Positions 3,925 to 53,042 of a DNA stretch of 64,000 nucleotides are shown piece after piece. Numbering within the stretch: position 1 is the first letter of the stretch; each line of letters opens with the position of its first letter. The translations under genes and the position numbers were made by a program. The notes below the pieces were generated by a model, which was not told where the DNA came from, did not search any database, and was given only the letters and a program-made list of their open reading frames with translations. This DNA is from Pristiophorus japonicus (taxonomy: Eukaryota), in assembly GCF_044704955.1 (NCBI RefSeq), contig NC_091989.1:56358001-56422000 (forward strand), written 5' to 3'.

Positions 3925-5268
3925 TTACAACAACTTTTATTTATAAAGCGCCTTTAATGTAATAAAATATCCCAAGGCGCTTCAAAGCAGCGTTAAAAGA
4001 CAAAATGAATAAATTTGACACTGAGCCACAAAAGAAGGAATTAAGGCACATGATCAAAAGCTTGGTTAAAGAGGTAAGTTTTAAGGAGAGTCTTAAAGGA
4101 GGAAAGAGAGATAGAGAGGCGGACAGGTTTAGGGAGGGAGTTCCAGAGGGTTCAAACAGCTGATGGCATGGCCACCGTTGGTTGAGTAGTTATAATGAGG
4201 AATGTTCAAAAGGGCATAATTTGAGGAGCGCAGACATCTTGTGGGATTGTGAGGCTGAACGTAGGATTCTGGTCTGAGGCCTAAATTCGCTGCACAGTGC
4301 ATGGGAGATGTCTATCTCGTACGTACGTACATACAAGCTGGAGTCACGTGGGCCTGGACCACCAATCAATATGCAGTATTCTCATTGATAAAAATGGGAG
4401 CTCTGTTTGTACGGGTTTCCATTACTAGGGACTCCATCCCTCTCCCTAGCATAAATTTGAGAGTGAACAAGACTGTTCATAACCTAGGTGTCATATTTGA
4501 CCCTGAAATGAGTTAATGACCACATATCCGCGGCATAACTAAAACCGCCTTTTTCCCACCTCCGTAACATTGCCAGCCTCCGCCCCTGCCTCAGCCCTTT
4601 TGCTGCTGAAACCCTCATTCATGTCTTTGTTACCTCTAGACTTGACTACTCCAACTCACTTCTGGCTGGTCTCCCACATTCTATACTACGTAAACTTGAG
4701 GTCATTCAAAACTCAGCAGCCAGTGGCCTAACTCGCACCAAGTCACGATCGGAAGGGGCAAGGCTATGGAATGATTTGTAAACAAGGATGAGAATTTTGA
4801 AATCGAGGCGTTGTTTAACCGGGAGCCAATGTAGGTCAGAAAACACAGGGATGATGGGTGATCGTGACTTGGGCAAGTTAGGACACTGGCTGCTGAGTTT
4901 TGGATGACCTCAAGTTTACGCAGTGTAGAATGTGGGAGACCAGCCAGAAGTGAGTTGGAGTAGTTGGAGCAGGCTGGCAATGTTACGGAGGTGAGAAAAG
5001 GCGGTTTTAGTTATGCCGCGGATATGTGGCCAGAAGCTCATTTCAGGGTCAAATATGACACCTAGGCTGCAGTCTTGTTCATTCTCAGATTGATGCAAGG
5101 GAGAGGGTTGGAGCCCGTACAAAGAGAGCTCCCATTTTTATCAATGAGAATACTGCATAATGATTGGTGGTCCAGGCCCACGTGACTCCAGCTTGTGCGT
5201 ATGTATGTATGAGATAGACATCTCCTGTGCGCTGTGCAGCGAATCTAGGCCTCAGACCAGAATCCTAC
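3925..5268 (-). mobile_element. L2-like LINE 3' fragment containing an inverted copy of its own 5' part (4257-4750)
   Basis: NLGVIFDPEMSF..HI, DYSNSLLAGLP, KLEVIQNSAA motifs; (CAA)n-TTTATTTATA tail as at 44.24 kb; 4257-4750 is the reverse complement of ~4860-5268. Confidence 0.72.
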
Positions 5269-5809
5269 TGTTGTGGAAAAATATTTCCAAGACTGTATAA
5301 TATATAAAGAGAGGTTTATTAAATCGGAGACAAAGCTTTGGGAGAAGTGTTAGAGACCCCTGTCTCTGAACCAGCTTCTCAATTTGGTATCTCCAGTGAG
5401 GTTCTTTTATCTTACAAATTACGTCACTTTACATCACATGCTTTAGCACTATTCCTTAAGTCTAATCATCGCATTACAAGATTTACAAAGCTTTTCATAC
5501 AATTACTATCCAAGGCTGAGCTCTTGATATAAACCAGCCTCGCATTGTGACAGGGCATTATAAACAAGTGCAGGCTTTTTGGCACCGGTATAGACAAACA
5601 TACCCACACTTATCTCTCCAGTCGTTCATTATCTCACTTTCCTATCTCCATAACTCAAGGCCAGCATACCTTGAAGTCTAACTGTGTTTTTTTATATAAA
5701 GCATAATGCATCAGTATTGTCCCTTACAAAATTCATTAAAGGGGAAAATAAAAACAAATGTTTGGTCCCGTATACTAGTCAAGTATATGTCCAAAAATCC
5801 GCTCCAACA
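5269..5809 (-). repeat. ERV-A 3' LTR (541 bp)
   Basis: Direct repeat of 16539-17078 (about 8 substitutions plus 1 indel by eye); preceded on the minus strand by the polypurine tract CCAAAAGGAGGAATAT; minus-strand AATAAA at 5315-5320. Confidence 0.95.
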
Positions 5810-5948
5810 ATATTCCTCCTTTTGGTCCTGGAAGATGTTCACAAAATCCAGATGACCACAATGATAGTAGCATGGTGTCATATATTCGTCCTTTGGGGTA
5901 TGTTACTTCCCTGATGTTCCGTATATCCACCTTGCCTGTAGCTCTAGG

Positions 5949-7318
5949 CTACCCTTCAAAAAGAGAGTGGTCGGTGTCAACGTCGTCTGTTTCTTCATCC
6001 TTGGTGTCTTCAGGTATTTCCATCAGGTGTGCTTCTTCTTCGGCGATTACACTGGCTACTGGCATCAGTCGGGCCATCATAACTTTACAGCAGATATTAA
6101 AACACCCGATAATCAGACAGCAAGTAATTATTATTACAACCAGAATAATTACTCCATGCATAAAATAGGACCCCCAGGATCTCCCTAACAGCCAGTCAAA
6201 CCAGCCAGATCCTCCTGCTGTCGTGGATAACTTCTTTACCTCCATTCTTATGTGATCAGTGAGGTTGGTTATGTTTTCTGAATTATCGGGAATGTAAGTA
6301 CAACATTCAGCTCCAATTAAGGCACATGTGCCCCCATTTTGTATATAATCTAGGGCCATTCGGTTCTGGAGTACCATTGTGCGTATTTCAGCCATTATGC
6401 CCTCTATTGCTTCAGTAGTGTCATTAACTATCTGTTCCATTACCCTCTCTAGGTTACGTAATTCATCCATGGTGCGTCCTATCCCGAATGGGAGCATCAT
6501 GACCCCAAATAGCCTCTCTACCGGGGTAAGATCTCGTCTTAGTCGACCTAGTGTCTGTACTTCTGCTAAAGTACGTACCCGTCTGACAAAAGGGACCACA
6601 TATCCCAAATAACAGGACCCCCTCCAGTCCTGAGGCAACCAGGGGTAGGCCTTATGCCCACACACAAAATAAGTGCCATTGTATGCTGTTCGATTCGATC
6701 CCAATCTCTCTTTCAGCCCCCGTCGCCACCTAATCTTAGGGTCCCAGTCCTGGCTACTTGTCTGATTCTTCAAACCCTCTATTTCAAAGAACCCCTGGTT
6801 TGTTGTTTCGCTGGCTATTATGTTCCACCTGGTGAGGTTAAAGTATCCTGCTACAAAACCTGTTTCCTCACCAGTCAGGTTTCTAGTGAAACAAATGTCA
6901 GCGGTGGGCCTTCCAACTCCTGAGGTGTTGGTCAAAACCAGAAACGGGGGTCGTACCGACCTATTGTATTCCGGCTGGTACCATCCGTCAATGCATCCAA
7001 AAGGTAACCCCCCGATCTCCACGTTTCTTTATCCCCACTCTGATTCCAAGTATCATTTACTTTCCCTGTACCGTTTTGTCGCATTACCCACTCCGCTACT
7101 TCCGAAATGTTAAGGGAGATTGACCTCAAAGGGATGCCTCCTTTGCTATGTATGGGGATGTGCGAACATACCCAGCAACTGGAAAAGTTCTCATTTTGCG
7201 CATAAACACAAGACATGTACAAAAAGGTATTCACATGTAACTCTCGTTTCGGTATAGCTAGCAGGCCGGACCTAACACGAACTATGATAATCGCACCGAT
7301 CGCAATATATAGTTTCAT
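5949..7318 (-). pseudogene. env: ERV-A envelope, gamma-type (one frameshift near 6990)
   Basis: Signal peptide MKLYIAIGAIIIV; CWVC (CXXC); furin site RLRR; ISD LQNRMALDY; CX6CC (CALIGAECC); hydrophobic TM; upstream acceptor TTGTTTGTCTATTTACAG near 7397. Confidence 0.93.
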
Positions 7319-7431
7319 CTTATTACTCTATAATTAACAAATAGTCAAAGGCAAAATGGCCGTATGGCTTGCTTGAAGAATCTCTCGCTGTCAATCTGTA
7401 AATAGACAAACAACAACAACTAATACATGTG

Positions 7432-10400
7432 CTAAACGGCTGGTTCAAAAACCTTATGCTGGGTCCAATGCTTCCATTTTCCGTTCCCTTTAACATCGAT
7501 GCAGGCACAAGTGTCCTTGCTGATTATAACCTCATACGGTCCTATCCATTTTTGGGGCAAACCCCGGTTTTCCCGGAAGGACCCTTACCATAACGCGACT
7601 TCCCGCCAACGGGACTTCAGGGAGCTTTGTAAGCTCTGCTTCCGCGTCTCTTTCTTCCTGATTGTCCCTAACTAATTTACGCATCCCTTTTAATTGAGTA
7701 CTTAGTTCCAAAACATACCGTTTTATTTTGTCTTTTAATGGGCCTACATCGGTCCCCCCTGTTATGATGATCTCTGGTAATTGCATCGCCCTTCCTGTCA
7801 TTAGTTCATAAGGGGTTAATCCGGTTGTCCGGTTTGTCGTGGCTCTTAACTTCATCAATATAATGGGTAATACTTCTGTCCACGTTTTTCCTGATGTTTT
7901 CATAGCCTTTGCCAGAGCGTTCTTAAGGGTATGGTTCATGCTCTCTACCATCCCAGAACTCTGCGGGTGATAGGGGTTGTGGAATTTTTGTTTTATGCCC
8001 ATCAGCTGGCATATTGTTTTTACAATTTTTCCGGTGAAGTGGGTGCCTTGGTCAGAATATCCTTGCCACTGTTGAGGCAGTGCAATCACGTGTGGGGAAA
8101 GCTTCCACCCACCGGGTAAATTGATCTATAATCACTAGGCAATATCTTTTTCCATGGGATGGGGGCAAAGGACCTGTGAAATCAATTTGTACATGTTCCC
8201 ATGGCCCCCGTGGACAGGGCTGGTGTCCCATTTTAATTTTAATGGGCCTGCCTGGATTATATTGTGCGCACGTAACGCATCGATGGCAATATTTGCCGAT
8301 ATCTCTCCCCATCCCTTTCCACCACCAATCTCTCCCAAGACTCCCGGTCATGGCCTCTCGTCCTGAATGAGACAGGCCATTATGCAACTCCAATAAGGTA
8401 TTCTGTATGCATTCAGGTGCCATTACCTTGTCGTTTCGTCTCCAAACGTTATCCTTCCCTTGCGTTGCGCCCTGCTTTGTCCACATACCTATTTCCTCCT
8501 CAGAAGTGTCCTGGTGTAGTTTCTCAATACTTATCTGTTCGACTCGGGTCCCAGCGGCACTGACTGAGGCTTCCTCACACTCTTCCTGTTCTAATGCCTT
8601 CTGTGCAGCTACGTCTGCAGCTTTATTTCCCTGGTGACTCAGCCAATCTGGACTGGTTCGGTCCGGCTCCCTCCTGTGGGCTTTAATTTTAATAACCGCT
8701 ACCTGTTTTGGTTTATTACTGGCTGCTAAAAGAGCTTCTGTTCTCAGCTGATGCTTTATGGGATGTCCGCTAGTTGTGATAAAACCCCTTCTCCCCCATG
8801 CTGTCATATAATCGTGTACTACCCCGAATGCATATCTACTGTCCGTATAGATATTAACAATCTTATTTTCCGATAATTCCAGTGCCCGGGTGAGGGCTAC
8901 CAGTTCTGCCACTTGAGCTGATGACCCCCCATTAATTCGCCCTGATTCCACTGACTCTAGATCTTGGTTAACTACGGCCCATCCGGTACGAGATAGTCCT
9001 CTATGTATTTTCGTGAGCCGTCCACAAACAAGGTTTGTTCTGCAGTTTGAAGGGGGGCGTCTTTTATTCTATCCTCTTCCATATCCTCACATACCTCTTC
9101 GCAAAAGTGGGGTTCCCCTTCACCCATCATACCTTCTGCGGGGTTGTTTCCTACATCCCTAATTATGGTTACCGCTTTGTTGGGTGTTAAGAGGACTGCT
9201 TCCCACTTTGCCCGTCTTATATTAGATACGGTTCTCAGTTTTCCTGTGTTTAACATTTCTACCAATGTGTGTTTAGTGTGGAGAATGATGTTTCCAGTCA
9301 TCACCACAGGCTCGTTTAATTTTTACCGCCCAAGCTGCGCAATCTAGCGCGGCTATACATCAGGATAACCCAGTCACCACCGAGCTTTCGGTGGTAGAGT
9401 AATAGGCTATTGGTCTCCTTTTATCCCCGTGATCTTGGGTGACCACGGCCATATAGAACCCACCTTCATTGTTACAGTGGATGTGGAAATCCTTACTCAT
9501 GTCAGGCAGTCCCAATCCAGGTGCGGAAACTAGTTCTGACTTGAGTTTATTATACGCCTGTTCTTGTTCAGGGCCCCACTCTATGAGGTCTAGGGCCGGT
9601 TTCCCCCCTTTCACTAATCTTTGTATTGGCTCAGCAATTTTTGCAAAATCAGGGATAAAGTTCTGGCTGTAATTAAAGAGGCCCAGTATCTTCCTCACCC
9701 CCCTTACCGTTACTGGTCTAGGCATGTCCTTGACAGCCTTTTTCCTATCCGAGGGCATTTCTTTCAGCCCCTTTGAGAGGCAGTACCCTAGGTACAGGAC
9801 CTGGGATTTCCCTACCTGGGCCTTTTTAGGGTTAACCTTAAGGCCCGCCGTTTCCAGAGCCCTTAATACTAAGTATAGGGTTGCCTGATGTCCTTCCTTG
9901 GTTTCTGAGGCTATTAATATGTCATCGACATATTGTAAAATACTATTTCCTGCCGATACCTATATTTGTTTTAGTATATCACTCATGACACGATGGAATA
10001 TGGCAGGACTATTATGGAATCCTTGTGGTAATTGGGTCCAAGTATATTGTTTATCCTCCATCGTGAAGGCAAATTTTTCTTGTGATTCTGGGTCGAGGGG
10101 AAAGGCCCAAAAACCATTGGCTATGTCCAGGACTGTAAAGATCTTATGTTCAGGGGATAATCCATCAAAAATTGTGGAGGGGCTGGCCACTATCGGGTGT
10201 AATTTGGGGGTGACCTTGTTAAGGGCAGTGTAGTCGATAGTGAGTCTATAACTCCATCTGGTTTCCCTACCGGCCATGTTGGGGAGTTAGTGGTGCTAAC
10301 TGTTTCTTTTAAGATACTCTTTTCCACTAGCCCTTTTACTATTTCTACAACCGCTGTTCTAGCTTCAGGTCTTATAGGGTATTGTCGGTGTGGTTTATGA

Positions 10401-10942
10401 GGTGGTCCAGGGACTTTAATAGGATCCATCTTCGCCTTTCCAGTATCCAATTTTGTCTGTGCCCAGACCCCGGGCACAGAGGCACATATGCCTCCATACC
10501 CTCCAGTCCCAATAAGCCAGTCAGTTTTTGTGGCTGTAGCTACACCTATACTTTCCACATGGTGGGCTATCTGTCCTAAATCTCCCTTACTGCCATCCGC
10601 CTTTGGCCATGTCAGTTTCCCCTTGCCGCAATCAATCAGGGCCTTAAATTCCTTCATTACATCATTCCCCAATATTGTTCCCTCACGATTCTTGTATACG
10701 TAAAATCTCATGGGTATATATAAGTTATCAATTTCCACCAATTGGATGGTGCTCAGGTAGGCCAGTGTGGGCCGTCCATCTATTTCGTTTATCAGAGCCT
10801 TCTTGTCGGTGACGGGAAGGGGCATATTGGTAATGGATATTGAGGCTCCCGTGTCCACTAGCATCTCATACTGTCGGCCCCCTACTAGTGCAGACACATA
10901 TATCCTTCCCTCCTTTTTACTTTGTATAGGGGCTGCCGGACA
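7432..10942 (-). pseudogene. pol: ERV-A pol (PR-RT-tether-RNaseH-IN), multiply frameshifted
   Basis: LVDTGAS protease; LDIANGFW..YTWTQLPQGFHNSP and QYVDD (9921-9932) RT; LFVDGS, SAQVAELVAL, IYTDSRY RNase H; HHCC, QIDFTGP, SDQGTHF, YHPQSSG integrase. Confidence 0.95.
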
Positions 10943-11321
10943 TCACCGGGTGGCTTTGTACGCCTGCTACTTCTGGTATTCCTGTTCTGACAGGGTCCTT
11001 GCCTTATTAGGATAGCCATTTTTACCATAGCATGTCGCTTCCAGATGCCCTTTCTTACCACAATACGTACATTGCTTTTCACTGCCTTTCCCTTTGCATT
11101 CCCTGGCAAAATGGCCCGGTTTTCCACAATTATGGCAAGTCCCCCTTTTCTGCCCTCCTCCTGTTCCCGTGGCAGAGACCTTTTCCTGCTTTATCTTTTT
11201 CTTTTCTAATCTGCTAAAGCTTACTGTTTTAGCCTTTTTCAAAAGTCTCTTTTACACCTTTGTTGTAGGTATTAGGCATCCTAGGGCAACGGCACCTGTA
11301 GGATAAGGGTAGAATTAAATA
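10943..11321 (-). pseudogene. gag: ERV-A gag C-terminal remnant (nucleocapsid, two CCHC knuckles)
   Basis: [14 protein letters not shown] and [14 protein letters not shown]; in frame with the protease across TAG (10967-10969) and TGA (10943-10945). Confidence 0.9.
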
Positions 11322-11883
11322 TGTAACTTGTACCATAAAATGGCTACCAGTGAAGCCTCAAGGGATTTATGTTAGCTGAAATAGACCGCATTCCTGGAGA
11401 CTGATACTTGTTGTTTCCCACACACAGGACCAGCAAGCAAGCTCTGCAGGTGTCTCTAATCAGCTAGGTCTCAGGACCAAATGTTCTAGTAACAATACGG
11501 CTCTGTAGCAGGATGGAGATAAGGAGGCTACCCAATGCCAGCATCCAAGGATAGTAAGATAAGAGAGGCCCAGGCCATGTTACAAGACACATGAGTCATC
11601 CCTAGCAACACACCCCTTAGCAACACATCTCTTGGCAACACATGAGCCACTTTACGTTTAGAGACTAACGCTATTGGTCTAATGTAACTGTAGTAAACTG
11701 TTGTATGTAACTGTAGTAAATTGTTGTAAAACATATAAAGATCCATGAAACCCTTTGTTCAGCGGAGAGAAGCCTGGACTCAGTCTTGTGATTTCCTCCC
11801 CGCTGGTGTGAATAAAGGCCGCACTGGCATTGGAACCGACTCTGAGTGTTGAGTGATTCTTCTGACAAACACTAACACTAACA
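11322..11883 (+). repeat. Element B 5' LTR (562 bp)
   Basis: TGTAAC...CTAACA termini; TATA-like CATATAAA near 11732; AATAAA at 11811; immediately followed by the PBS; 3' part repeated at 15397-15466. Confidence 0.88.
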
Positions 11884-11884
11884 G

Positions 11885-11902
11885 TGGCGTCACGAACAGG
11901 AT
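11885..11902 (+). promoter_or_regulatory. Primer binding site, tRNA-Ser(CGA)
   Basis: TGGCGTCACGAACAGGAT is complementary to the vertebrate tRNA-Ser(CGA) 3' end ATCCTGTTCGTGACGCCA. Confidence 0.85.
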
Positions 11903-12425
11903 TTCGGGGTCGCTGGGCGCCCTTGGAAAAACCCGGGTGAGTATACAAAACGATTTTTAATTATAAAGGGTGCGGAAGGTGGATGCTGGTTGATCGACAC
12001 GAGGAGATGGTCCAATATCTTAAACACCTAGCCTGAGCCTGAATTAAGAGGACTTTAGTCCCACGTGACGGCCAGGAATTAAGTAGGTGCCGGGAACACA
12101 CTTGGACCGTGGGATCGTGATACTGAAAGGCATCTTCCAGACCCAGCAGTGTAATTTGTAATATACCCCGGGGTAGAACAGCGGCTAACGGAATCCAAAC
12201 CTGCGAACAGGGTCGGACCAACGGGCAAGAGCGGTGGTAGGTAGTCGTTAAGGTTAACGTAAGCACTGCGGGAATTGCTTAAACGCGTTTTAAGAATTGT
12301 ATAAGTCTGTGTAACAGCAGAACTTGTGACCTGACAGTAGCTAGGAGACGGTTTACTACAAGTTACGCTAGGTAGAAAGCGGACCTCTGAGAGTAGATAC
12401 CTAATGGATCTAGTCCTACCCAGGA

Positions 12426-12642
12426 ATGGCCATGAAAGCAAGTAAACTCGAGTGGGGATCAGAAGGGTCCATTACCCGCCATCTGGCGGAAAAGCAAAAG
12501 AAACTAATCGAAAAAAATGATTAGAGCAGGGTGGAATCCTCAGGAACTACCAGCAAAGCAACGGGAATGGTGGGAGAAGGAACGGAAAGTCAAAAAGAAA
12601 AAAAAGGCTGTGGTCTTGATACTGCGAGCCCACGTAAATTAA
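12426..12642 (+). pseudogene. Basic matrix-like ORF remnant of element B (one frameshift)
   Basis: MAMKASKLEWGSEGSITRHLAEKQKKLIEK / MIRAGWNPQELPAKQREWWEKERKVKKKKKAVVLILR downstream of the PBS; Trp/Lys-rich like retroviral MA. Confidence 0.4.
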
Positions 12643-13979
12643 CATAGGAAGCTAAGATTTAAAAAAAACTGACGGTGATTGTCTTAAGTGAAGTGTGGAA
12701 GAGGAATAGAGCTGGCCAAAAAAAAAAGATTAATAGGAAAGAAGAGAGACTTTTGTGAACGTCTGTCTTAAATGAGAAGTGCCTGTGTGATTTTGTGACT
12801 GCGGAATGAATTTTTATGTTGTCATGTTTCTGAAAGCCTGGTTGGAAGAGGAATGCAAGTGTCTGTTTATTTTAGCTAACCCTTTGTAGTGTTGTCCTGT
12901 ATGTGGGAAGTTTTAAGACATTTTAAGTTAGAAACGCAGGTGTGGATTTATTCGGATGATTCGGATGATAAGTTACGGAGCTAGGAAATGTACAAAGGAT
13001 AGGTTTGTTGAGCAAAAGATAAAAAATACATGGTCCCGGTGGTTAAAAAAAAGAATTTACTTGTCGAAAGAAAACATGCAATGATTGATTGGGTTGAAAG
13101 ACATAAATTTAGTCTCGGAATGAGATAAGGAATGCTTTTAAAAAAAAAAAGAGCTTCTAGCAAAAAAAAAGGTTTTAAATAAAGATTGAAATTACAAAGT
13201 TTGAATTGGGATTTTGAGATATTCAGAGAAGGCACAGAAAATAAAGACGCCACTTTAAAAGTAAACAAAATGTGTTTGTGATGGAAAAGGACATAACTTA
13301 CTAAATACTAGTTGATGTTTGCTGTGAAAAAGATATTGGTTTAATTAGAAAAAGAAACAAAATTTGGAAGAGGTAAAAAAACACTTAACATTGATAATGA
13401 TTTTAAATTATGAGAAAGTTTCAATGCAGTTTGAAAAGATTTCCAAAATGGACAGTGTTTATCAAGAAAAGTCCCGAACAGTCTAAACAAGCAGGAGGGT
13501 TTTGAAGATCTAAGCTATGCGAACTCAGCACAGAGAAAAAAAAAAACTGGAAATTAGAGAATCTTACTGAATTCTTAAATTCTTATAGAAAATGGAACTG
13601 GCACAGAAGTTTAGATTTTGTGCTGAGAGAAATTAAAAAAAAACAAAATTGAATTTCAGTAAACAAAATTGCTATTAAAAATGTGTGGTCTCGTTTTATA
13701 TAAAAAAAAAATGTATTTGGCAAGTACTTGAATTAGAAGTTAAGAAAACATTGGAGTTTACTCTAAAATGCCGTCTTCCCTGATGAGAAGATTTTTATTA
13801 TTTATGCTGTTTAACGGATTCCTAATTTCTAAGCCAGTTTTGAAGGCACAAAGACTTTTTTTTACAGATGATTACGTGAAGTCACGTAATGACATCAGGT
13901 CTTCTTACAAACCTGGAAAGGAGTTAACCCTTTCCATTGACAGCCGTTTAAGCTGCTGAACATTATTAGTTTGGATTTC

Positions 13980-14210
13980 TTAATAGAAAAAAAACTCACC
14001 TAACAGAGGAAACAAAAATAAAAACAGAACTAGCTTATGTAATAATACTTGCCTGATACAATAAAGAAATAGATACTCAATAAAACAAATTGAAGAGTTA
14101 AAAGCTAAGATAAACAGGCTGGAAGAGATAACGGGACTAGACGGATAGTGCAGTGCGCAGCCATAGCACCATCACCTATGGCAATAGAGCCAATGTACCC
14201 CACGGTGGGT
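13980..14210 (+). pseudogene. Coiled-coil plus Pro-rich gag-like remnant of element B
   Basis: KQIEELKAKINRLEEITG heptads followed by APSPMAIEPMYP; interrupted by stops. Confidence 0.35.
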
Positions 14211-14253
14211 AGGTGTAGTCCACAAACCCAACCTAACGGTAAAGCAGACAACG

Positions 14254-14367
14254 ATGTTCGGAGGAATAGCTTTGGCCTTGGTCATTATAGGAGTTTGGGT
14301 AATATTTAAGTGGGTAAAGACACGGGCGCACGCCCCACAAATTCAACTCGAAATGGTTCGATTATAA
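14254..14367 (+). CDS. 37-aa single-pass membrane micro-ORF upstream of element B env
   Basis: MFGGIALALVIIGVWVIFKWVKTRAHAPQIQLEMVRL*; hydrophobic helix followed by basic residues; ends just before the acceptor TGCTTCTGATTTCGCAG (14388). Confidence 0.4.
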   Translation: MFGGIALALVIIGVWVIFKWVKTRAHAPQIQLEMVRL

Positions 14368-14473
14368 CCTGTGCTTCTGATTTCGCAGGGTGACAGGGAT
14401 ACTCGTAGCGCAAAACCTAACCCCTGGTGACGACCAGGCCGTCTGTTTAAAATTACAGATAATACCTACCAGA

Positions 14474-15396
14474 ATGGGAATACGAATGGCACTCCTCGTA
14501 ATATGGATAGCCCTGCGACATGCACGTACCCTGGACAACACCGACGGATTGCAGCGCACTCAGGAAATAAACAACTACATGAACTATGGAGTCTTGTTTA
14601 ATTTAACGGATGGAATGTGCATCCCAGCAGCCAAGGACTGGAGCAAGGACAGGACTTATTTTAATGCATAAGAGTATGTGTACAGTGCTCCACGGGTATA
14701 AGGAGCAGCTGCATTAAACAGAGGGATGTCAAGGGGCCTGATGAATGTACTTTCTGTACTTTCGGCATAATTTGCACGCCTCCGGGACAATCCCAGCAAT
14801 CAGTCATCCGCAAAAAGGGAGTGGGGCTGTGTGGGTATTACGAGGAGGTGGGGGCGGCTGCAATATCATTGTATGTATGCTTCTCACCCCCTCCGACACC
14901 GCACCCCATAAGAACCACAACATTGTCCGAGGAACTGCCTTGTCCCATAACTACTAAGGGACCAGAGAATGGGATTGTAATGTACAACGAAGGGGAATTA
15001 TTGTATGATAATGTTAAACATGAAATTGTGCCTGTCCTGATCAATATTTCAGGCATCCAGATGCCGGAATACTGTACGGAACAGTCAAGGAAAATGTACA
15101 ATGTATTAAGTAAAGTTGTAATGCAGCAGGCTGCCGATGCAATGGGTGCCAGTAGATTCCGAGGACAGGGGTCAGCCCTCAGGATAAAGAGGGAAATAGA
15201 CATACAAGGATTAAATGAGAAGGTGGAACAGCTTAGAGGGGTGATGAAAGGGTTATTAGAGAGGGTGGAGCAAAACCAGGAAGACCAGGCCAACTTAGGA
15301 AAGGAGGGTGCCAAAATCCAGTTGGATGACATCTCAGTCCTGGAAGCTCACGCCAAAACCATCAATCACCTCATACAGGAAAGCAAAGACAGGGGC
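14474..15396 (+). pseudogene. env: Element B envelope glycoprotein, lokiretrovirus/paramyxo-F-like, 3' truncated
   Basis: Signal peptide MGIRMALLVIWIAL; Pro/Thr linker; GPENGIVMYNEGELLYDNVKHEIVPVLINIS; furin-like RIKR; long heptad IDIQGLNEKVEQLRGVMKGLL; no CXXC motif in the part present. Confidence 0.62.
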
Positions 15397-15466
15397 AAAG
15401 GCCGCACTGGCGTTGTAACCGACTCTGAGTGTTGAGTGATTCTTCTGACAAACGCTAACACTAACA
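15397..15466 (+). repeat. 3' terminal remnant of the element B LTR
   Basis: AAAGGCCGCACTGGC..GACTCTGAGTGTTGAGTGATTCTTCTGACAAAC..CTAACA matches 11814-11883. Confidence 0.92.
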
Positions 15467-16517
15467 CGTTCACAGATAGCTCACCACTCGCCCAGGAGTT
15501 TGACCTGATCCCTGAAGGTATTTCTAAATTTAAAACTCTTTTTTTTTTTACTGAGCTAGAAGCTTTCGTGTCAAGGTTTTACACAAAGGAAAATGGGAGC
15601 GTTTTAAAAGGCATTCTTTATCTCATTCCTAGACTAAATTTATGTCTTTCAACCCAATTGCATGTTTTCTTTCGACAAGTAAGTGAGCGTGTCAAATAAA
15701 TTCTTTTTTTTTTTACTACCGGGACCATGTATTTTTTTATCTTTTACTCAACAAACCTATCCTTTGTGCATTTCCTAGCTCCGTAACTTATCATTCGAAT
15801 ATATCCACACCTTCGTTTCTAACTTAAAATGTAATACCATAAGGTTCAGTTTCTTAAACTTCCCACATACAGGACAACACTACGAAGGGTTAAAAAAACA
15901 TTCACTCTGTTTGGAAAAAGTGGATGGAGCTAAAACAGGCAGGCAACTCTACACCTTCCCAAACAGGCTTTCATTCATTCTGCAGTCAAAATCACTCAAG
16001 TACTCTCTTCATTCAAAATAGACACTCACAAAAGTCTCTCTTCATTCAACAAAGCTTATGTCTGGATCCATATGTCACTTAAGATAGTCACTATCAGCTT
16101 TTTTATGGCATTATGTAATTACCCAAGTTACAATTAATGATAGGAATTAATTAATGACCCGGGCAGCCCGCGTTTTACATTCCCTTCCTTACCTTACATG
16201 TTCGCCAGTCTTGGACGTTTCCCTTTGTTTCTGTAATACTCACGGCCACGACTACTCTGTGGAGACCCTTTGTCTTCGCAACAAAGCTAGCGTGTTTCCT
16301 TACCACCGGAGTTTTGGCTCTAGGTTGGAGTGATCAGTTCCCTTCCGCACCGACCTTATTTACTAAAGGGACAACTCAAACTGGTTAGTCAGCCTCTTCC
16401 CGCTATCTACTTACTTGTATCTTATACACTATCCCATCGTGCCCGTACACCTTTCTTTTCAGTCTCTAACACCAGATTCCAGATACTGTCTTAAGTGATC
16501 ACGTCTGATCGGACAGT

Positions 16518-16535
16518 ATCCTGTTCGTGACGCCA
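16518..16535 (-). promoter_or_regulatory. ERV-A primer binding site, tRNA-Ser(CGA)
   Basis: Plus-strand ATCCTGTTCGTGACGCCA, 3 nt inside the 5' LTR; the same 18-mer as the element B PBS. Confidence 0.88.
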
Positions 16536-16538
16536 TTT

Positions 16539-17078
16539 TGTTGTGGAAAAATATTTCCGAGACTGTATAATATATAAAGAGAGGTTTATTAAATCGGAGA
16601 CAAAGCTTTGGGAGAAGTGTTAGAGACCCCTATCTCTGAACCAGCTTCTCAATTTGGTATCTCCAGTGAGGTTCTTTTATCTTACAAATTACGTCACTTT
16701 ACATCACATGCTTTAGCAATATTCCTTAAGTCTAATCATCACATTACAAGGTTTACAAAGCTTTTCATACAATTACTATCCAAGGCTGAGCTCTTGATAT
16801 AAACCAGCCTCGCATTGTGACAGGGCATTATAAACAAGTGCAGGCTTTTTGGAACCGGTATAGACAAACATACCCCCACTTATCTCTCCAGTCGTTCATT
16901 ATCTCACTTTCCGATCTCCATAACTCAAGGCCAGCATACCTTGAAGTCTAACTGTGTTTTTTTATATAAAGCATAATGCATCAGTATTGTCCCTTACAAA
17001 ATTCATTAAAGGGGAAAATAAAAACAAATGTTTGGTCCCGTATACTAGTCAAGTATATGTCCAAAAATCCGCTCCACA
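16539..17078 (-). repeat. ERV-A 5' LTR (540 bp)
   Basis: Direct repeat of 5269-5809; flanked by the PBS and TSD CTAC. Confidence 0.95.
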
Positions 17079-31886: not shown

Positions 31887-34800
31887 TGTTATGTATGTTA
31901 ATGTATGTACTGTAACACTAGACCACTGAATGTACCTTCACACTGTATACACCATACCTGTACTACCAGAGGATGCTACTGGTGGAGACCTAAGGGTCAC
32001 CTGCACACTGCAGGTAACCAAGTATAAAAGGGAACTCACCTCATTGTGTCCTCACTCAAGGAGCTGCAATAAATGGACTAAGGTCACGACAGTTCAAGTA
32101 CTATACCCTTACCTCGTGGAGTCATTATTAGAGTGCTTGCATATACTACAACTGGCGACGAGGTTATGAATTTCCACACACATGTCTAATCTAAACAACT
32201 TCCAACAATTCACTGATGGGGAAGATTGGGATGCCTTTGTGGAACGACTCGAACACTTTTTCATCGCGAACGACCTGGCTGGAGACACACCAATCTCGCT
32301 GGCTGATAAGTGCAGAGCCATCTTGCTCAGCAGTTGTGGGCCCACTATCCATGGCCTCGTCAGGGACCCGCTAGCCCCAGCGAAGATAACAACCAAGACT
32401 TATGCGGAGCTCGTAACTATAATACAAGAACAACTCAAACCTAAAGAGAGCATCCTCACAGCCAGACACCAGTTCTACACCCACCGGCGGCCCGGAGGCC
32501 AAGAAATTGCTAAATATGCTGCAGACCTGAGAAGATTGGCTGCACCATGTGATTTTGGCGACTACCTCACCGAAGCACTAAGGGATATCTTCGTTATTGG
32601 AATCAGCCACGAGGGTCTCCTCCATAAACTGCTCTCTGCAGACACTACGATTACCCTACAGAAGGCAATTAAAGCGAGCCAGGCATTCATGATTTCGGTC
32701 TGCGACTCCAAGAGGATGATGACTCACACCCAAGACTCTAACCCGACGAGTACATTGAACTGAATGGCGACTTTCGGAGGCAAGACTGCTGGCCCAAGTC
32801 CCGCAAACCTGAGTCCGCCACATGGGGCCAACCGGCTAGCCCCATGCTGGCGCTGTGGAGGAAACCACAGGGCCCACCAGTGCCGATACAAAGACTAAAC
32901 TTGCAAAGGCTGTAACACTAAAGGTCACCTTCAGAGAATGTGTAGAAAAAGCTTTACTCACCGCGTAGCTGAAGATTTGGCTGATCACCTGGGCTCCAGC
33001 GCTGGTGAAGACGAAGCGGCTCAGCCCCTGGAAGAGGAGTACGGAGTGTTTACCTGCTCCACTGAGAGTTCCCCGTGGAAAATGGAAGTAGAAATCAACG
33101 GTGTTCCAGTCTCGATAGAGATCGACACAGGGGCGAGCCAATCGCTGATGAATCAGACGGCCTTCGAGAAACTCTGGGACAATCCCGCCCAATTACCCAA
33201 AATGTTCCCAACCCAGAAGAAGCTGCTCACTTACACAAAAGACACTATCCCAGTCATTGGCAGCGTGGATGTCCAGGTATCCCATGGCGGCGCGATGCAC
33301 AAGCTTCCTTTGTGGATTGTTGCCGGTGATGGTCCAACGCTGCTGGGAAGAAGATGGATGAAGCAAATCCAAATCTGTTGGAGCAGGGAAAGCCTCCAGG
33401 CCCCGACGATCGACATCCCATGCAGTCCCAAACTTGGATCCATCGCAGCACCTAGAAATCCTACTGTCCAGCTCGACTGCGTGGCGACGACACAGACTGC
33501 ACAACTCAACGGCGAGGTGATCCAACCTGAACGACCAGACCTCACCTTCCGGGCTCCAGTGGCGGGACTCCGAGCGAAGAAGATCGGTGCAGAAAGTAGA
33601 TTCCCGGCTTCTGTGGCAGAACCTGGGTAGAAAAGGAACACCGCAGCCTACCTCGTGGAGAGAGAGAAGATGGCGGCTGCACCACGAGGTGAAGCGCCTG
33701 AAATCAAGATGGCCACAACCAGACCACGAGGGGCAGCGTTGAGGGAGCAACACGTGATGCTGAGCAGCGAACTGGATTGGGGTAAAGATTACAAGGCCCT
33801 CTTAAAGGAGACCGGCAACCCAAAACAATTAAAGGGACAGTTCCACTCTTGGTACAGCGATGCCGGTGACACTAATGATAAAGGTGTAATTAATGAATGC
33901 AAGTATATAAATGTACTGTTGAACGGTGATGCTGGTAATGCTAATGGGACAAATGTAACTAACAAAGGCAGGTATCCAAATGTAACCTTGCACAGAGATA
34001 CTGATAGTACACAGGGAAGTGCTATAATGGACAAATATGAAAGTGTAAAGACAAATAACTATGTCGAGTCGGCTGGTTGCGGTCGGAGCCAATGTATCAT
34101 GAATGCTAATGGTAAAATGAGAAATGATGCCGGGTCCTACATGTATGCCGACAATGCCAAAGGCAACCTCCCGTGGGAAACACCCAGGTCCAGCGGGCTA
34201 CCCAATCATGTAGCCTGTGCCTCCGGGACCAATGTGTTGCCCCAGGGAGGGTGGCCACACACAGTGAGAACATACCCACTACAAGGACAGCGATCAATGG
34301 ACGGCACAGGCACCACCACTGGCAACCTGCCCCAGATCAGCTCTACACCCCTGGCCACCAGAGCTAGCACCGGGAGCAAGAGGCCAGTACCCGCCAGCTT
34401 TCCTGACTGTACCTGGGATGACCAGATTTCCACCACCAATGAAGGGCAGCAAGTTGACCCTACAGCCCTCAATGGAGGGCAGGGAGGCCACACCACCCTG
34501 TGGTTCTGCCCACCACTAAATGACCTCACCCACCCAGACAATATAATGTATGTACCTTACCTATAACATGTACTTGCTCCACCACTGCTGAATTCAAAAA
34601 CAGTGACATAACCAACCTGATCCCTTACTCACTCTATATGTATGCCAATGCAGGTGTTGAGCCACACACACGGTCTATGTATGGGGGGGGAGGGGGGAAT
34701 GGATGTATGTAGCCATGTACACATGGATCACACCCAGAACCCACACAACTCTCACTACAACCTCCAACCGTCCACTGCCGACCACTTCCCAATGTCATGG

Positions 34801-35198
34801 CAATAAGGACTTGGGGGTCCACAGGGAGAGAGCCATTCCCAAGCAAAGACAAAGTGCAAGGGCTTTGGGCACTCAAGTCGAGGGCCAGAGAACACAGTGC
34901 AAATGCCTGTGGCACAAGACTTAGGGGGATGTGTTGTTACGTATGTTAATGTATGTACTGTAACACTAGACCACTGAATGTACCTTCACACTGTATACAC
35001 CATACCAGTACTACCAGAGGGTGCTACTGGTGGAGACCTAAGGGTCACCTGCACACTGCAGGTAACCAAGTATAAAAGGGAGCTCACCTCATTGTGTCCT
35101 CACTCAAGGAGCTGCAATAAACGGACTAAGGTCACTACAATTCAAGTACAATACCCTTACCTCATGGAGTCATTATTAGAGTGCTTGCCTATACTACA
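31887..35198 (+). mobile_element. Gypsy-1: non-autonomous Mag-like LTR retrotransposon (Gag-PR-X, no RT/RH/IN)
   Basis: 264-bp LTRs 31887-32150 and 34935-35198 (about 10 differences); TSD AGGCG/AGGTG; PBS TGGCGACGAGG (tRNA-Ser GCT) at 32153; PPT before the 3' LTR. Confidence 0.93.
32182..34566 (+). pseudogene. gag: Gag-protease-unknown tail polyprotein, one reading frame with three stops
   Basis: EDWDAFVERLEHFFIAN gag; CWRCGGNH..C and CKGCNTKGH..C knuckles; IDTGAS and TLLGR protease; ORFs 32182, 32938 and 33655 share a frame (stops at 32761, 32896, 33628). Confidence 0.85.
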
Positions 35199-35589
35199 AG
35201 GTGGATATAAACGATCCTATGACACTATTTGAAGAAGACCAGGAGAGTTTTCCCTAGTGTCCTGGTCAATATTCCACCCTCAACCAACATCACTAAAACA
35301 GATTATCTGGTCATTATCTCATTGTTGTTTGTGGGACCTTGTTGTGCGCAAATTTACCTACTTTACAATGGTGATTACACTTCAAAAATTAATAAATGTT
35401 TGTGAAGAGCTTTTTTGCAATGTTGAGAGCAAAAAGATGCTATACAAATGTTATTTTTTATTTTTCTTTCGCTTTCTCTCTAGATGATTATGACTGCCAT
35501 CAGTGCCTTTTACCTTTACTGCATAAGCTGATTCATTAAACATTGTGTGTGCACTGAAGCAAAAAAACTCCAGACATAAATAAACCAGA

Positions 35590-41149: not shown

Positions 41150-42170
41150 CAGCGAGGAGCGGAGGTCAGAAGCGGCGTGGAGCGGTGGTCGGAATTGAGG
41201 AAGAACGGAGATCAGGACCGGCGAGGTCTGGAGAGGTCCAGAGGTCCAGAGAGGTCCGGAGGTTGGGACGGGTGAGGTCCGGAGGTCGGGACCGGCGAGG
41301 TCCGGAGAGGTCCGGAGGTCGGGACCGGCGAGGTCCGGAGGTCGGGACGGGTGAGGTCCGGAGGTCGGGACTGGCGAGGTCCAGGGAGGTCCGGAGGTCG
41401 GGATGGGTAAGGTCCGGAGGTCGGGACCGGCGAAGTCCAGGGGTTGGAACCGGTGAGGTCTGGAGGTTGGGACCGGCGAGGTCTAGAGATCAGGACCGGC
41501 GAGGTCCAGGGAGGTCCGGAGGTTGGGACGGGTGAAGTCTGGAGGTCGGGACCGGCGAGGTCCAGAGGTCAGGACCGGCGAGGTCCAGGGAGGTCCGGAG
41601 GTTGGGACGGGTGAGGTCTGGAGGTCGGGACGGGTGAGGTCCAGAGGTCAGGACTGGCGAGGTCTGGAGGTTGAGATCGGCATAGTCCGGAGGTCAGGAC
41701 CGGTGAGGTCTGGAGATCAGAAGCGGAGAGGAGAGGACGAATGAGGCATGGCAGAGCGATGAGGTCAGAGCACAGAGGTGGAGCAGCGTAGACAAAACCA
41801 AGGTAAGGCGCAGCATGGGCCAATTGCGAGGCTGTGAGGTCGTGAGGCTCACATTGCGTACTATGAATTCCACGTAGAGAGGTCCTGTGGGAAAGAGGAA
41901 GAAGGACAGTAGGAGTATGTTTGAATTTGTGTGTATGTATTGGCACATACGGCAGAGCCTGGTTTCCAGTCGTCTTTCATCCCCTTGCCACTGGACCAAG
42001 ACCTTGCTCTGTCAAGTCCGTGTGGTGGCAGGTGTGTAACGGCCACCCCATGTTAAAAGATTTCATGCACAGGCATCTTCCACCGTTTAAAATGAGTTCA
42101 TCAACCACCTGAGTACTCATTTTTAGTGCGGAAGCAAGTCATCCTCGAGAGATTGCCTATGATGATGATG
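41150..42170 (+). mobile_element. RTE-derived SINE-like element with an expanded GGAGGTCGGGACCGGCGAGGTCC tandem repeat (41200-41720)
   Basis: About 23-bp degenerate tandem units; 3' end GCGGAAGCAAGTCATCCTCG..CCTATGATGATGATG. Confidence 0.75.
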
Positions 42171-44919: not shown

Positions 44920-45923
44920 GAGCCAATGTAGGTCAGCGAGCTCGGCCATGGGCTGGCGAGATTTGGATGACCTCAAGTTTACATAGGATAGAATGTGGGA
45001 GGTCAGCCATGTGTTCATGTCTAGAGGTAACAAAGACACGGATGAGGGTTTCAGCTGCTGATGAGCTGAGGGAGGTGCAGAGACGGGCGATGTTATGGAG
45101 GTGGAAATAGGTGGTTTTAGTTATTGTTATGTTCAGAATAACTCCACAAGACTGTATATCTTAAGCTCAAACTGTTGTGACCTTAGTCTCTTTAATGTGA
45201 CTCCAGAGGAGGCAGCATGGTAGATTACCTTTTATACCTGCTTGCCCAGGGTGCACAGGTGACCCTTGGGTCTCCCACAGCTGTGCCCCCTGGTGGCAAG
45301 TCTTACATATTGGTGAGATTTACATACATACATAACATCACTCCCCACCAAAGTCTTATGTACAAGTTATTTACAAGTTGAAGCGATCTGGCGCTCTGCT
45401 TTCCCGGGTCGATCGCCTGAGTTGAAGTCCTGGTGTGGGTGAGTTGGTCGGATCATTGCTGCATGGTCGCACGGCTGGTCTGATCGGACTGTCGGGCATG
45501 GTGGGTTCATCCTCGTGGTTGACAGCGAGGTCGATTTTGTTAGTGGGTCGTTGGGGCTAGGTCTTTTCACAGTGGTTCCTGGTTATCTGTAGTTCACAGT
45601 TTGGTCTGGTCCAAATGCTTTCTGCATTTGCCCAGTACATGGTTTCACAACAAACACTCCATTTTCATCACAAACACTCCATTCCCCTCTTTGGCTAATA
45701 CAGTGCTAGCAGCCTATCTGGGGCCATGAACATGGCCTACATCATTTATTCTGATGTCGCGTGGAGGAACCGTGCGATCATGGTACATTCTCTGCTGATA
45801 GCATAAGCAAGGCTCGGTTCTGAGTGATTCTGTCTGGTGACTGTGTTGCACCCGGGATAGCCAGGTCTGTAGGGAGTCTACCGTGACACGTGTGGTGCTT
45901 GGCTTTATGATTTGCGCTGCTTG

Positions 45924-46513
45924 CTCCAGACTATTGTCGCTCTCCCTAAGGTCTGGCAAGCCAAGGATGGACGATATGGCCTTGAGACTTTCAGTAGTGA
46001 CGGAATACTCTTTAGTTCCGTTGGCTGGATGCACTCTTGTCCGTGTCTGTGATGTCAACTGCCGCGATCTTCCTCCCTCCCCAGAGATTTTGCCTCTGGC
46101 ATTGGGAAGACGCATTCGGATTGTTTTGGCTGGAGTCCCACTCTGCTTGGTCGACTTGGAGCCTCTTCCATCATTGTGAAGAGGTCGTCGGCTTTGGGTG
46201 GTGGGTACCGCGCCTGTACCGCTGCTCGGTTGATCTTCATCTCCTCGTGGTCGATGAGCGGTCTGTGCCTCGTGAATCTGCAAATGGATCTGCACTTTGA
46301 TGCCTGGTTCAGCTGAAGGTGGAGGCTTGCACAGCCTTTGAGCAAGCGAGACGTCATTCGCCGGAGAAGTACGCAGAGGTCTTCCAGTTCCATCAAATCT
46401 TCCCCATCCACCTTCTATCAAGCAGCATTGGCCCATCACCTGAAACAATCCAGTGGTAAATCGTGCATCGCTCCCTCATGGGATACTCTTATGTCCGCAC
46501 TACCAATAACTGG
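45924..46513. repeat. 590-bp direct duplication of Gypsy-2 sequence (second copy 53043-53634) flanking ERV-C
   Basis: Both copies begin CTCCAGACTATTGTCGC and end ACCAATAACTGG; their paired ORF translations are near-identical. Confidence 0.95.
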
Positions 46514-46814
46514 ATGTTTCAGGGGAAGAGGGAGAGGAGGTGCAGGGCGGGAACAATATGATGCCTGTCACAATTGTGGTCAGATTGGACACTGGGCTAG
46601 AACTTGCCGGGCAAAACAGCAACAACCAAATTATGATTGGACTCAACAGGCAGGTAATAGAGCACACCCTCCCCCTTCAGGACCCAACCCGTATGCGACC
46701 CAAATCCAGGTACATGCTAGACCTCAGACTAATTTCTCTGTGCAAGATCCATTTGGATCACAGAATCAAAAGCAATTCAGCCAACCACCAAATTGCCCGT
46801 ATAATGATCAATGA
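46514..46814 (+). pseudogene. gag: ERV-C gag C-terminal remnant (one CCHC knuckle)
   Basis: RGRGRGG..CHNCGQIGHWARTC; ends in TGA-C in frame with pol. Confidence 0.88.
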
Positions 46815-50924: not shown

Positions 50925-52319
50925 ATAAGGAACTGTATGGACTATGGGGACTGATGGTGCTGGGCTTGACAGGGTTTTACTTCGCATTATTGATTACACC
51001 AGGGGTACAGACCCGCCACCGAAGGGAATTGCACGTAAACGTATTTATGGCGCTGAGTCATAGATATGTTCACGAAAGAAACTTGTCAAGTTGTTGGGTG
51101 TGTTCCCATGTGCCTGTCCACTCCAGGGGGGGTATTCCCCTGAGATCTGTCCCCTTTAACGAATCAGAAATAGTCGAATGGTTGACAGTGCAAAATAGGA
51201 CAAAACTAACTAAGGGGCCAGAAACGAAGGAGCAAATAGAATAGAGGTCGGCAGGGTATAAACTTACAGCCTTCCAGGGATGGTACCAACCCAATTATGA
51301 TAATAACCATCAGCCTCCCTTCCTAAGCATTACTCCCAGAATAGAAAATCCCGAAGGTATAATATGCCTAGTGAGTAATGAGACTAAAGGACCAGAAATG
51401 GGACGCAGCAAGTGTTCCCAAATGATTAAATGGCAAGCCACAACTAATTCCACTGAGAGAAAGATAGCAACCCGTTGGCTGGACAACGGTCCATAACAAA
51501 GCCCCAGGTAAAGGGTGGGAAGGTGAGACCACTCGAGTAGGGACAGTGCGAAAGGACCAGGAGCTGACGTCCTATAATTGCACCTACTTTATTTGTGGCC
51601 ATAAAGCCTACCCATGGTTACCAGCCAACTGGACAGGGTCCTGTTACTTAGGATATGTGGTACCCCTTATCAGATCAGTAAAGACTCTAAGGGAGGCCTA
51701 TGGAAGTCACAGATTTAAACGGGATTTGACGTGGCTAAACGGAATATTCAAGGTAATGGTGCCACCCTATAGAATAGCATCAACCGAATGGCAGTTACGG
51801 GAACTGGCTAACTTAGTCGAATCAGTAGCCAACGCAACTTCCCAAGCCTTTGAAGGGATAAATGACGAAATGGTAGCTATTCGAACAGTGGCTCTCCAAA
51901 ATCGTATGGCCTTAGATTATCTCCTAGCCAAGGAGGGAGGAACATGCGCATTAATAGGTGAAGAATGCTGTACATATATCCCAGATAAATCAGAAGATAT
52001 CGGCAGTCTAGCTGAAAACATCAGGAAAAAGGTAATAGAGTATAAACAGACAGTTGGCCAGGACGGTATCACCTTGTGGGGTTGGGCATCAGGATGGTTG
52101 GGAGCCCTGGGGAAATCTGTGGTACAGGGTTTGATCATATTCCTGCTGATAGTCTTCGCCCTGTATCTATTATTTGTCGTCGTTAAGTGTTGCTGTGCCA
52201 GGGTGGGAGAAACTATGTTACCTACCGAGACCACGGCTAGAGTTATGGTAGCAACAACTGCTGAAGGCTCTTGTGTGGAAATGGAAATGGAGAGACTGTA
52301 CAAGATCAGAATGGATTAA
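50921..52319 (+). pseudogene. env: ERV-C envelope, gamma-type (stop at 51242, frameshift ~51.5 kb)
   Basis: Hydrophobic signal; CWVC; furin site RFKR; ISD LQNRMALDYLLA; CALIGEECC; TM LIIFLLIVFALYLLFVVV. Confidence 0.93.
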
Positions 52320-52349
52320 GTTGTCCTTGTGAAGGACAAAATGGGGGAA

Positions 52350-53042
52350 TGTGGAAATGTATTTTTATCTAAGCTGATACCATACGGTATTTGTGTGCCC
52401 TTTGCAATATATATATATCAAAATGGAGTCCTGGCCCTTCCAGAACTTTCTGCATTTTAGCAGTCAGCTTGCATAAACAGCTAAACCTGGTTTGAGATGG
52501 CTGATGGCCATCAGACAGCTAGGAGACAAGTCATGCTGAGACAAGTACCTCCCCCCCCCCATGGTGCTCTCCTATTGTCTACACAACAAGAGTTCCATGT
52601 CACCCCACCCTTATCTTCTAGCCATTATCTCTTGCAGAGACCTCATCCATTTGATGCAAACAGATAAACTGACCAGGAAATTGAACTATCCTGACACAAT
52701 ACAAGACAGGTGATAGCCCATTACCTATGACTCATGGAGTAATGGCCGGCTGGTCAACTGATAACCCTGACAAAAGGAAATATCTGGATACCATGTCAGG
52801 ACCAGGATATAGTAATTAACTCTTTATCTGCATTCACTGACTGTGAGACAGAGCAATACACAGGGAGAGGCCATAACTTGGGTTTTACTGTATAAATATC
52901 TTGTTAAACTGAACCATTTCGGTGGTGTTCGCTTAGCCCTTGACTGAGTGTAACCTGCCCCTTGCTAGCAAGCGAATTAAAGAAACTTCTACCGGAGCTG
53001 TAAGTGTCGGAGTCATTCGTTTCAGAGGTCGAGATTTCGACA
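52350..53042 (+). repeat. ERV-C 3' LTR (693 bp)
   Basis: TGTGGAAAT...ATTTCGACA inverted termini after the PPT; TATAAA ~52891; ATTAAA ~52976. Confidence 0.88.

Follow-up and report, generated by a model that had tools for sequence, protein, structure and literature searches.

Element B of Pristiophorus japonicus, a copy of a pol-less family derived from an endogenous retrovirus with a predicted F-like envelope

Defective elements in which a foreign middle is flanked by the ends of an active retrovirus, such as ETn/MusD, are thought to be spread by the proteins of their parent. The same is thought of recKoRV, which is likewise defective and built from active retrovirus ends and a foreign middle (PMC9388103; this and the other articles given by PMC or bioRxiv number, and Bhikhari, are cited for their available portions). 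Non-autonomous members also exist among the lokiretroviruses (Loki; Bhikhari), endogenous retroviruses (ERVs) whose envelope protein (Env) is related to paramyxo- and pneumovirus fusion protein F and comprises a signal peptide, an RXKR site, a fusion peptide, a coiled coil and an anchor (PMC7947760). Foamy virus Env is an F-like class I fusogen, the Env of orthoretroviruses being placed in a separate subclass (Fernandez 2024, PMC11468914), and F-like Env is found in errantiviruses (bioRxiv 2023.10.26.564294). Exchange of env between retroviruses has been described as well, for XtERV-S (PMC8278194). Hence F-like Env, defective riders with a foreign middle and env exchange are each already known. 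Which of F-like and gamma-like Env is the older in retroviruses was left open by Wang and Han 2021 (PMC7947760). Here we analysed a stretch of 64,000 nucleotides (nt) from Pristiophorus japonicus (RefSeq assembly GCF_044704955.1, contig NC_091989.1, positions 56,358,001 to 56,422,000; hereafter the window), in a 5.9-Gb assembly whose closest named proteins are from shark. In the window an element, B, lies within an ERV termed ERV-A. An initial annotation had taken B for a satellite that is mobilised by ERV-A-type Gag-Pol and supplies a second envelope. Our reading, with a probability of about 0.75, is that B, which carries a deletion, is one of many copies of a protein-less recombinant derived from another family, ERV-F, that ERV-F Env is predicted to have an F fold, and that B was likely moved by ERV-F proteins with a dead env as passenger.

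As had been annotated, B has its own long terminal repeat (LTR) and a gag stub and lacks pol (Table 1). The start of the element, previously placed at 11322, was corrected to that of the 5' LTR seen in other copies. The 18-nt primer binding site (PBS) is indeed identical to that of ERV-A (16535-16518), and its complement, extended by the T-arm motif, matches the genome exactly at a single place, a tRNA-Ser(CGA) gene. A second PBS variant in other B and ERV-F copies presumably belongs to another serine tRNA. The leader, of which about 0.5 kb had been thought to be shared with ERV-A, proved to be of ERV-F type and likely contains a packaging signal. DNA in common with ERV-A lies downstream of the gag stub in AT-rich filler and amounts to only 75 and 267 nt at 78-82% (12737-12811 and 12877-13143). 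The target duplication of B contains one mismatch; the empty site was seen in 13 of 16 other, uninterrupted ERV-A copies, so the duplication is 4 bp long and ERV-A lost nothing on insertion. A deletion of about 1.8 kb fuses env at 15396 to a 70-nt remnant of the 3' LTR, and the copy has lost the U3 region and the purine tract of this end. Other B copies contain about 1.3 kb of additional env and a whole 3' LTR.

To place the window copy, relatives were collected from the genome. Searches with env DNA and with filler gave 2558 and 3318 first-look candidates, 40 being scored in each case; these figures are not copy numbers. Sixty relatives were fetched, namely 20 picked by env DNA, 20 of 95 env-protein matches chosen for long open frames, and 20 picked by filler. 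The B family consists of two-LTR elements of about 6 kb without pol, a structure present in 56 of the 60 (19/20, 17/20 and 20/20, respectively); the twentieth env-DNA-picked copy, L040, retains the 3' part only. Exact target duplications were found in 28 of 57 B rows (L040 included), whereas the ends were not found in 20 and no exact match in 9. Because the pol-less structure recurs with separate duplications, as the initial annotation had suggested checking, B is not a one-off deletion. Two LTRs, a PBS, a purine tract and the lack of gag-pol coding capacity characterize the family as non-autonomous LTR elements, and an autonomous partner sharing LTR and leader with it was found in ERV-F. Median differences between paired LTRs are similar in B (1.75%, 15/20 scorable) and in the two complete families (1.87% and 2.1%). 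At one locus (L089; G000:C7:121289163-121313103) B-type copies stand head to tail at a spacing of 5653 bp with identical env matches, either a tandem array or an assembly artefact. Six copies (L038, L040, L042, L043, L045, L049) adjoin or lie inside gypsy-like pol, which may be chance in a repeat-rich genome.

Three env-protein-picked matches contain pol, together with a gag of 473 codons encoding two CCHC knuckles. A search with ERV-F gag gave 90 scored matches, many without a stop, and 19 of 20 gag-picked ERV-F copies show gag, pol and then this env. All three frames are open in 6 copies; one fully open pol contains a locally shifted stretch, hence an open frame is no proof of function. In ERV-F, pol follows gag in frame after one stop, and a retroviral tether and RNase H are present. 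The LTR pairs are identical in 3 of 18 copies; three rows have common flanks and are duplicates. B matches ERV-F at 84-89% in 11683-12655 (3' part of the LTR, leader and start of gag) and in 14255-15398. Between pol and env, parent copies keep a small open reading frame (ORF) of about 66 codons (6442-6642 in copy L119) that encodes a single hydrophobic segment, and a variant of it occurs in a 6.8-kb subfamily; judged by its sequence, it is a candidate accessory membrane protein. Another ERV-F copy (L091) has pol and env but has lost the capsid part of gag, a defect like that of the window ERV-A.

The duplications bear on the question of which proteins moved B. Among exact duplications, 5-bp ones account for 8/11 in ERV-F, 19/28 in B and 3/13 in ERV-A (23, 57 and 36 copies examined). 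Duplication lengths, taken together with the shared leader and LTR, point to ERV-F proteins as helper. B RNA would then have been packaged, reverse-transcribed and integrated in trans by ERV-F proteins, as structure and duplication lengths suggest, carrying the dead env along; the filler would have been acquired by template switching with a co-packaged RNA. Two observations weigh against helper function of ERV-F alone. Nine of the 28 B duplications, including that in the window, have the 4-bp length typical of ERV-A, and filler DNA is common to B and capsid-less ERV-A, in keeping with co-packaging now and then. Thus the natural helper is the parent, in place of the ERV-A that had been proposed; some mobilisation of B by ERV-A proteins may nonetheless have occurred, since 4-bp duplications form a minority in B and both PBS and filler are common to B and ERV-A.

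In the window ERV-A the LTRs are 97.8% alike, protease, reverse transcriptase (RT), tether, RNase H and integrase are all broken, and env is of gamma type (TLV_coat, E 2e-12). The two filler pieces given above occupy the place of the lost capsid gene in 16/16 capsid-less ERV-A copies, and a third (13272-13411) lies inside RNase H in 5/16. Filler is found in defective forms of both families and is absent from their complete parents (Table 1), which makes it a trait of the defective forms; it likely came by recombination between co-packaged RNAs. An ERV-A family altogether without capsid, suggested by the same 16/16, was rejected, as many RT-picked ERV-A relatives have long and some have full-length gag matches. 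In B, unlike recKoRV and ETn/MusD, the middle also occurs in the defective forms of a second lineage, which has a different envelope, and the element retains most of env. It is possible, though we regard it as the less probable course, that both families served as helpers, RNAs of ERV-F, ERV-A and their defective forms being co-packaged and the filler acting as a cis-acting module for export, packaging or stability that favours spread. The presence of filler in all B-type and all capsid-less ERV-A copies, its absence from either complete parent, the mixture of 4- and 5-bp duplications in all three groups and the similar LTR ages agree with this. However, filler sharing could stem from one or two chance recombinations, the cis-acting role is only hypothetical, and each integrase may make both lengths, the minority length occurring in 3/11 ERV-F and 3/13 ERV-A duplications.

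The env of B in the window is damaged: it contains frameshifts and a stop, and 18 codons immediately after the cleavage site have been lost in frame. All 20 filler-picked copies, which were chosen regardless of env, contain frameshifting indels; an insertion at codon 74-75 is present in 17, a common 4-nt deletion in 9 and a common stop in 7. A 13-nt insertion is common to 22 of 40 other copies. Since these lesions are common to copies, the family multiplied after env had died, and B env is a dead passenger that supplies no envelope, contrary to the initial annotation. The 18 codons are missing in 19 of the 20 nearest copies (the window copy and 18 others). This sample was picked by likeness to the window, and the loss is clear in only 1/20 filler-picked copies, several being unscorable; it is a trait of a sub-lineage and not of the family.

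Pairwise ratios of nonsynonymous to synonymous change (dN/dS) in env, another check that had been suggested, were 0.21 within a set of 13 young parents, and comparisons of older with young parent copies gave 0.08-0.14. Five of six pol-less subgroups had higher values, namely 0.43, 0.44, 0.44, 0.43 and 0.54. Several points tell against a dead env throughout the family. The sixth subgroup, of four copies, has a dN/dS of 0.26, and all 19 long filler-picked copies pooled give 0.33, which blurs the difference from the parent. Transition bias is not taken into account by the estimator, and pairs between subgroups include inherited selected change. In addition, seven pol-less copies of 6.8 kb have long open env frames without frameshift, 6/7 being stop-free over the mapped part. 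Accordingly, env might at first have worked in an early B-type satellite, complementing genomes of its own family or genomes lacking env, and been lost only in later subfamilies. We regard this as improbable: the 6.8-kb subfamily has a dN/dS of 0.43, equal to that of clearly dead clades, its copies were picked for long frames, and both copies inspected carry a stop near the likely start.

The Env of the ERV-F/B family is predicted to have a fold like that of paramyxo/pneumovirus F. The features named for the window glycoprotein were confirmed, i.e. a signal-peptide-like start at 14474, GPENGIV..LLYDNV..IVPVLINIS, RIKR (15181-15192) and heptads, but its frame is broken and its downstream half missing. 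The copy lacks the fusion-peptide segment, the domains after the first heptad repeat (HR1), the second heptad repeat (HR2) and the anchor, whereas furin site, fusion peptide, HR1, HR2 and anchor are all present in the parent Env and in other sharks. Full-length Env has about 707 residues, with a signal peptide, a Cys-rich part, an F2-like strand, RxKR, a Gly/Thr-rich segment and a long HR1, followed by a Cys-rich beta region, HR2, a Trp-rich stretch and the anchor. The segment after the cleavage site is only mildly hydrophobic (mean hydropathy 0.4-0.9). Loki Env agrees by eye with the shark protein in motif order, but the latter has an additional N-terminal Cys-rich part, and its fusion segment is far less hydrophobic.

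A natural stretch of the parent ectodomain was modelled from 46 rows (pLDDT 72, pTM 0.50; an earlier 12-sequence model had reached pLDDT 29). All matches listed by Foldseek against the PDB were paramyxo- or pneumovirus F, the best being postfusion F of respiratory syncytial virus (E 3e-12), with human parainfluenza virus 3 F also among them. A second structural comparison gave Z scores of up to 11.9 (6apb_B: Z 11.4, rmsd 4.5, 282 aligned). Predicted viral structures that matched included F of lispi- and baculoviruses, feline foamy Env and walleye epsilonretrovirus Env. The Env profile, in turn, matched foamy Env 8ozh (E 1.8e-4), 8rm1 and 8rm0. These results bear out the F-like class I assignment of the initial annotation; the pTM of 0.50 speaks against placing full weight on the model. 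In Pfam scans neither the window env nor the full-length env matched a viral family (no hit to PF00523), and single-sequence and shallow-profile searches with Env against the PDB gave no match. One distant env relative matched Baculo_F (E 0.001), and ESM Atlas returned clusters of Baculo_F, Fusion_gly and Gypsy env (0.91-0.93, recognition low), which serve only as a lead.

Foamy Env shares the F core and the profile match; it has 988 residues as against 707, and the gag-pol layout of ERV-F is orthoretrovirus-like. Predicted Env of the walleye dermal sarcoma virus (WDSV) as well as that of walleye epidermal hyperplasia virus 1 (WEHV-1) ranked among the best viral matches (E 1e-8 and 8e-11), but these viruses have an epsilon-type pol and an Env of 1159-1317 residues. 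Walleye epsilonretrovirus Env is called distinct from the gamma type in a review (PMC9967133). The BFVD entries Q9WHI8 and A4GTG3 (WEHV-1 and WDSV Env) matched the F-fold model, and a statement of their F-likeness was not found in the literature searched. An Env profile search yielded 60 relatives, of which 10 were looked up; they came from Chiloscyllium, Heterodontus, Mantella (16 near-identical members), Pelodytes, Bombina and Xenopus tropicalis. By sequence comparison, the env family extends to other sharks and four frog genera. In the distant env relatives P0171, P0183, P0189, P0192 and P0214 (bamboo shark and frogs), an immunoglobulin-like or other N-terminal domain replaces the Cys-rich part (V-set match for P0192, E 0.045). 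Receptor-binding modules seem to be exchanged on a common F core.

ERV-A and ERV-F are related in RT (60-62% identity over 284 residues) and form sister clades in one RT tree (support 95/92). A second tree adds two outer elements, one with a distant F-type env (30%, E 5e-58) and one with a gamma-type env. As related RTs are thus joined to different envelope classes, env has been replaced at least once between the ERV-A and ERV-F lineages, in one direction or the other. One lineage with two unrelated fusogens, as originally proposed, is therefore to be read as two related lineages, gamma-type ERV-A and F-type ERV-F; that the fusogens are unrelated holds. Four elements (L161, L162, L170, L171) combine an ERV-A-like RT with a different LTR and an env of which only the transmembrane half is alike (40-71%), and these sequences point to a possible further exchange within the gamma type.

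Compared by eye with the supplement alignments of PMC7947760, ERV-F and ERV-A have RT and RNase H motifs like those in the snakehead retrovirus (SnRV) rows and unlike those in the Loki rows. In a PDB ranking of ERV-F RT/RNase H, murine leukaemia virus (MLV) and xenotropic MLV-related virus (XMRV) stand above foamy virus and Ty3; they are the best RNase H matches (E 1e-33), with no foamy RT-RNase H among the 60 rows listed, although this is a ranking and not a tree. Both families are likely near SnRV (clade Huo, class III), as far as motifs can suggest. Against this placement stand the by-eye nature of the comparison and the absence of an SnRV row from both RT trees. The four-lineage clade has a support of only 83/84, in one tree and with a four-way branching inside. 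An RT scan of IMG/VR gave no relative. Elephant shark carries SnRV-related ERVs (CmiERV lineage I, PMC4422223), and such ERVs form clade Huo (PMC6001957); ERV-F and ERV-A resemble this clade by eye in RT/RNase H motifs, and also in a small ORF near env and an aquatic host (PMC12193657, PMC6001957). An F-fold Env, as in ERV-F, was not found described for the clade in the literature searched; SnRV Env was not among the matches listed from the Env profile and viral structure searches, and an SnRV-specific comparison was not made. XtERV-S resembles ERV-A in being class III, in its serine PBS and in its gamma-like transmembrane part, and further points of likeness are its TGT...ACA ends and 5-bp duplication; it differs in lacking zinc knuckles, in a dUTPase listed in its table and in being ERV-L-like, and the available part of the source describes no F-type sister (PMC8278194).

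ERV-F could also be a lokiretrovirus or a foamy virus of cartilaginous fish, for which an F-like env would simply be expected. Its Env is F-related with short motifs in the order of Loki, the Env profile matches foamy Env, and the best PDB match of its integrase is foamy. Nevertheless we hold this to be very unlikely, and the lokiretroviral affinity assumed in the initial annotation is not borne out by the backbone. The RT carries LPQGFHxSP and WPVxKPDxSxRLTIDY, as does SnRV, and does not show the RCPFG of Loki. The best scores of RT and RNase H are against MLV/XMRV, two CCHC knuckles are found in Gag, and a single stop separates gag from the pol that continues in its frame. Loki elements were found in 0/3 chondrichthyan genomes and, in the available part of PMC7947760, are not reported from cartilaginous fish.

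Least probable of all, and for the window's subfamily largely refuted, is an env-supplying satellite that takes Gag-Pol from ERV-A: the identical PBS, the AT-rich DNA in common with ERV-A copies, the existence of gag-complete ERV-A and the 4-bp duplications in 9/28 B would suit it, but leader and gag stub derive from ERV-F, which has open gag-pol, env is broken at shared sites in 20/20 filler-picked copies, and the shared DNA is absent from gag-complete ERV-A.

Table 1. Coordinates of B and its host element in the window.
Feature	Position	Strand	Basis or remark
4-bp target-site duplication, left copy	11257..11260	.	empty site in uninterrupted ERV-A copies
5' LTR of B, TG...CA	11261..11883	+	identical start in other B copies and their 3' LTRs
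PBS for tRNA-Ser(CGA), same as that of ERV-A	11885..11902	+	sequence match
Leader from ERV-F parent	11903..12425	+	85-89% to ERV-F copies, no ERV-A match
ERV-F gag stub, frameshifted, first ~70 of ~470 codons	12426..12655	+	tblastn
AT-rich filler in place of gag-pol, ~1.6 kb	12656..14253	+	no match in 20 RT-picked ERV-A relatives, 20 ERV-F copies or the Gag/Pol of either parent
Small hydrophobic ORF, 37-codon 3' part	14254..14367	+	ORF of ~66 codons between pol and env in parent
Putative env splice acceptor, AG at 14387-14388	14370..14388	+	sequence motif, also in parent
Predicted F-fold env, broken 5' half	14474..15396	+	signal peptide, Cys-rich N-terminal part, F2-like strand, RIKR, HR1 start
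3' LTR remnant, R/U5, 70 nt	15397..15466	+	96% to 11814-11883
Target-site duplication, right copy, one mismatch	15467..15470	.	empty site in uninterrupted ERV-A copies
ERV-A, host element: capsid-less, broken pol, gamma-type env	5269..17078	-	B antisense inside

Other features were observed in the window. A third ERV (45924-53743, + strand) has an open pol of 1369 codons (MLVIN_C, epsilon-like by tree), a gamma-type env and a much shortened gag, and the gag-remnant sequence that follows its 5' repeat is found again after its 3' repeat. Nested inverted repeats at 4261-5268 (arms of 155, 92 and 71 nt) adjoin the ERV-A 3' LTR; they resemble a miniature inverted-repeat transposable element and have relatives at 44936-45124 and 54987-55073. 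A 3.3-kb element at 31887-35199 has direct repeats of 265 nt (96%) and contains several ORFs that are 200-310 codons long. GC-rich minisatellites lie at 57450-59350 and 41167-41732, with units of 28-29 nt and 23/33 nt, respectively.

An SnRV-like ERV with an F-fold Env in sharks or frogs was not found in the literature searched, nor is one described in the available portions of PMC12583693, PMC11521997, PMC9967133, PMC12440569, PMC8227577, PMC12193657 and bioRxiv 2024.03.17.585361; closed journals, Repbase and bioRxiv supplements may hold one. Tentatively, and with more doubt than belief, sharks and frogs might harbour an undescribed SnRV-related, orthoretrovirus-like branch with F-fold Env that is young in P. 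japonicus, with F and gamma envelopes alternating in four close lineages and a transferable AT-rich filler, common to the defective offshoots of two of these, promoting parasitic spread. B itself is an ordinary defective rider, and its filler, found in two families, is a clue to co-packaging of viruses with different envelopes. The parent ERV-F and the envelope swap hold more interest. The F fold, as predicted here, would extend beyond foamy and Loki viruses to an orthoretrovirus-like backbone, and a clade within one genome, with RTs about 60% alike, either Env class and young copies, offers material to time and orient env swaps.

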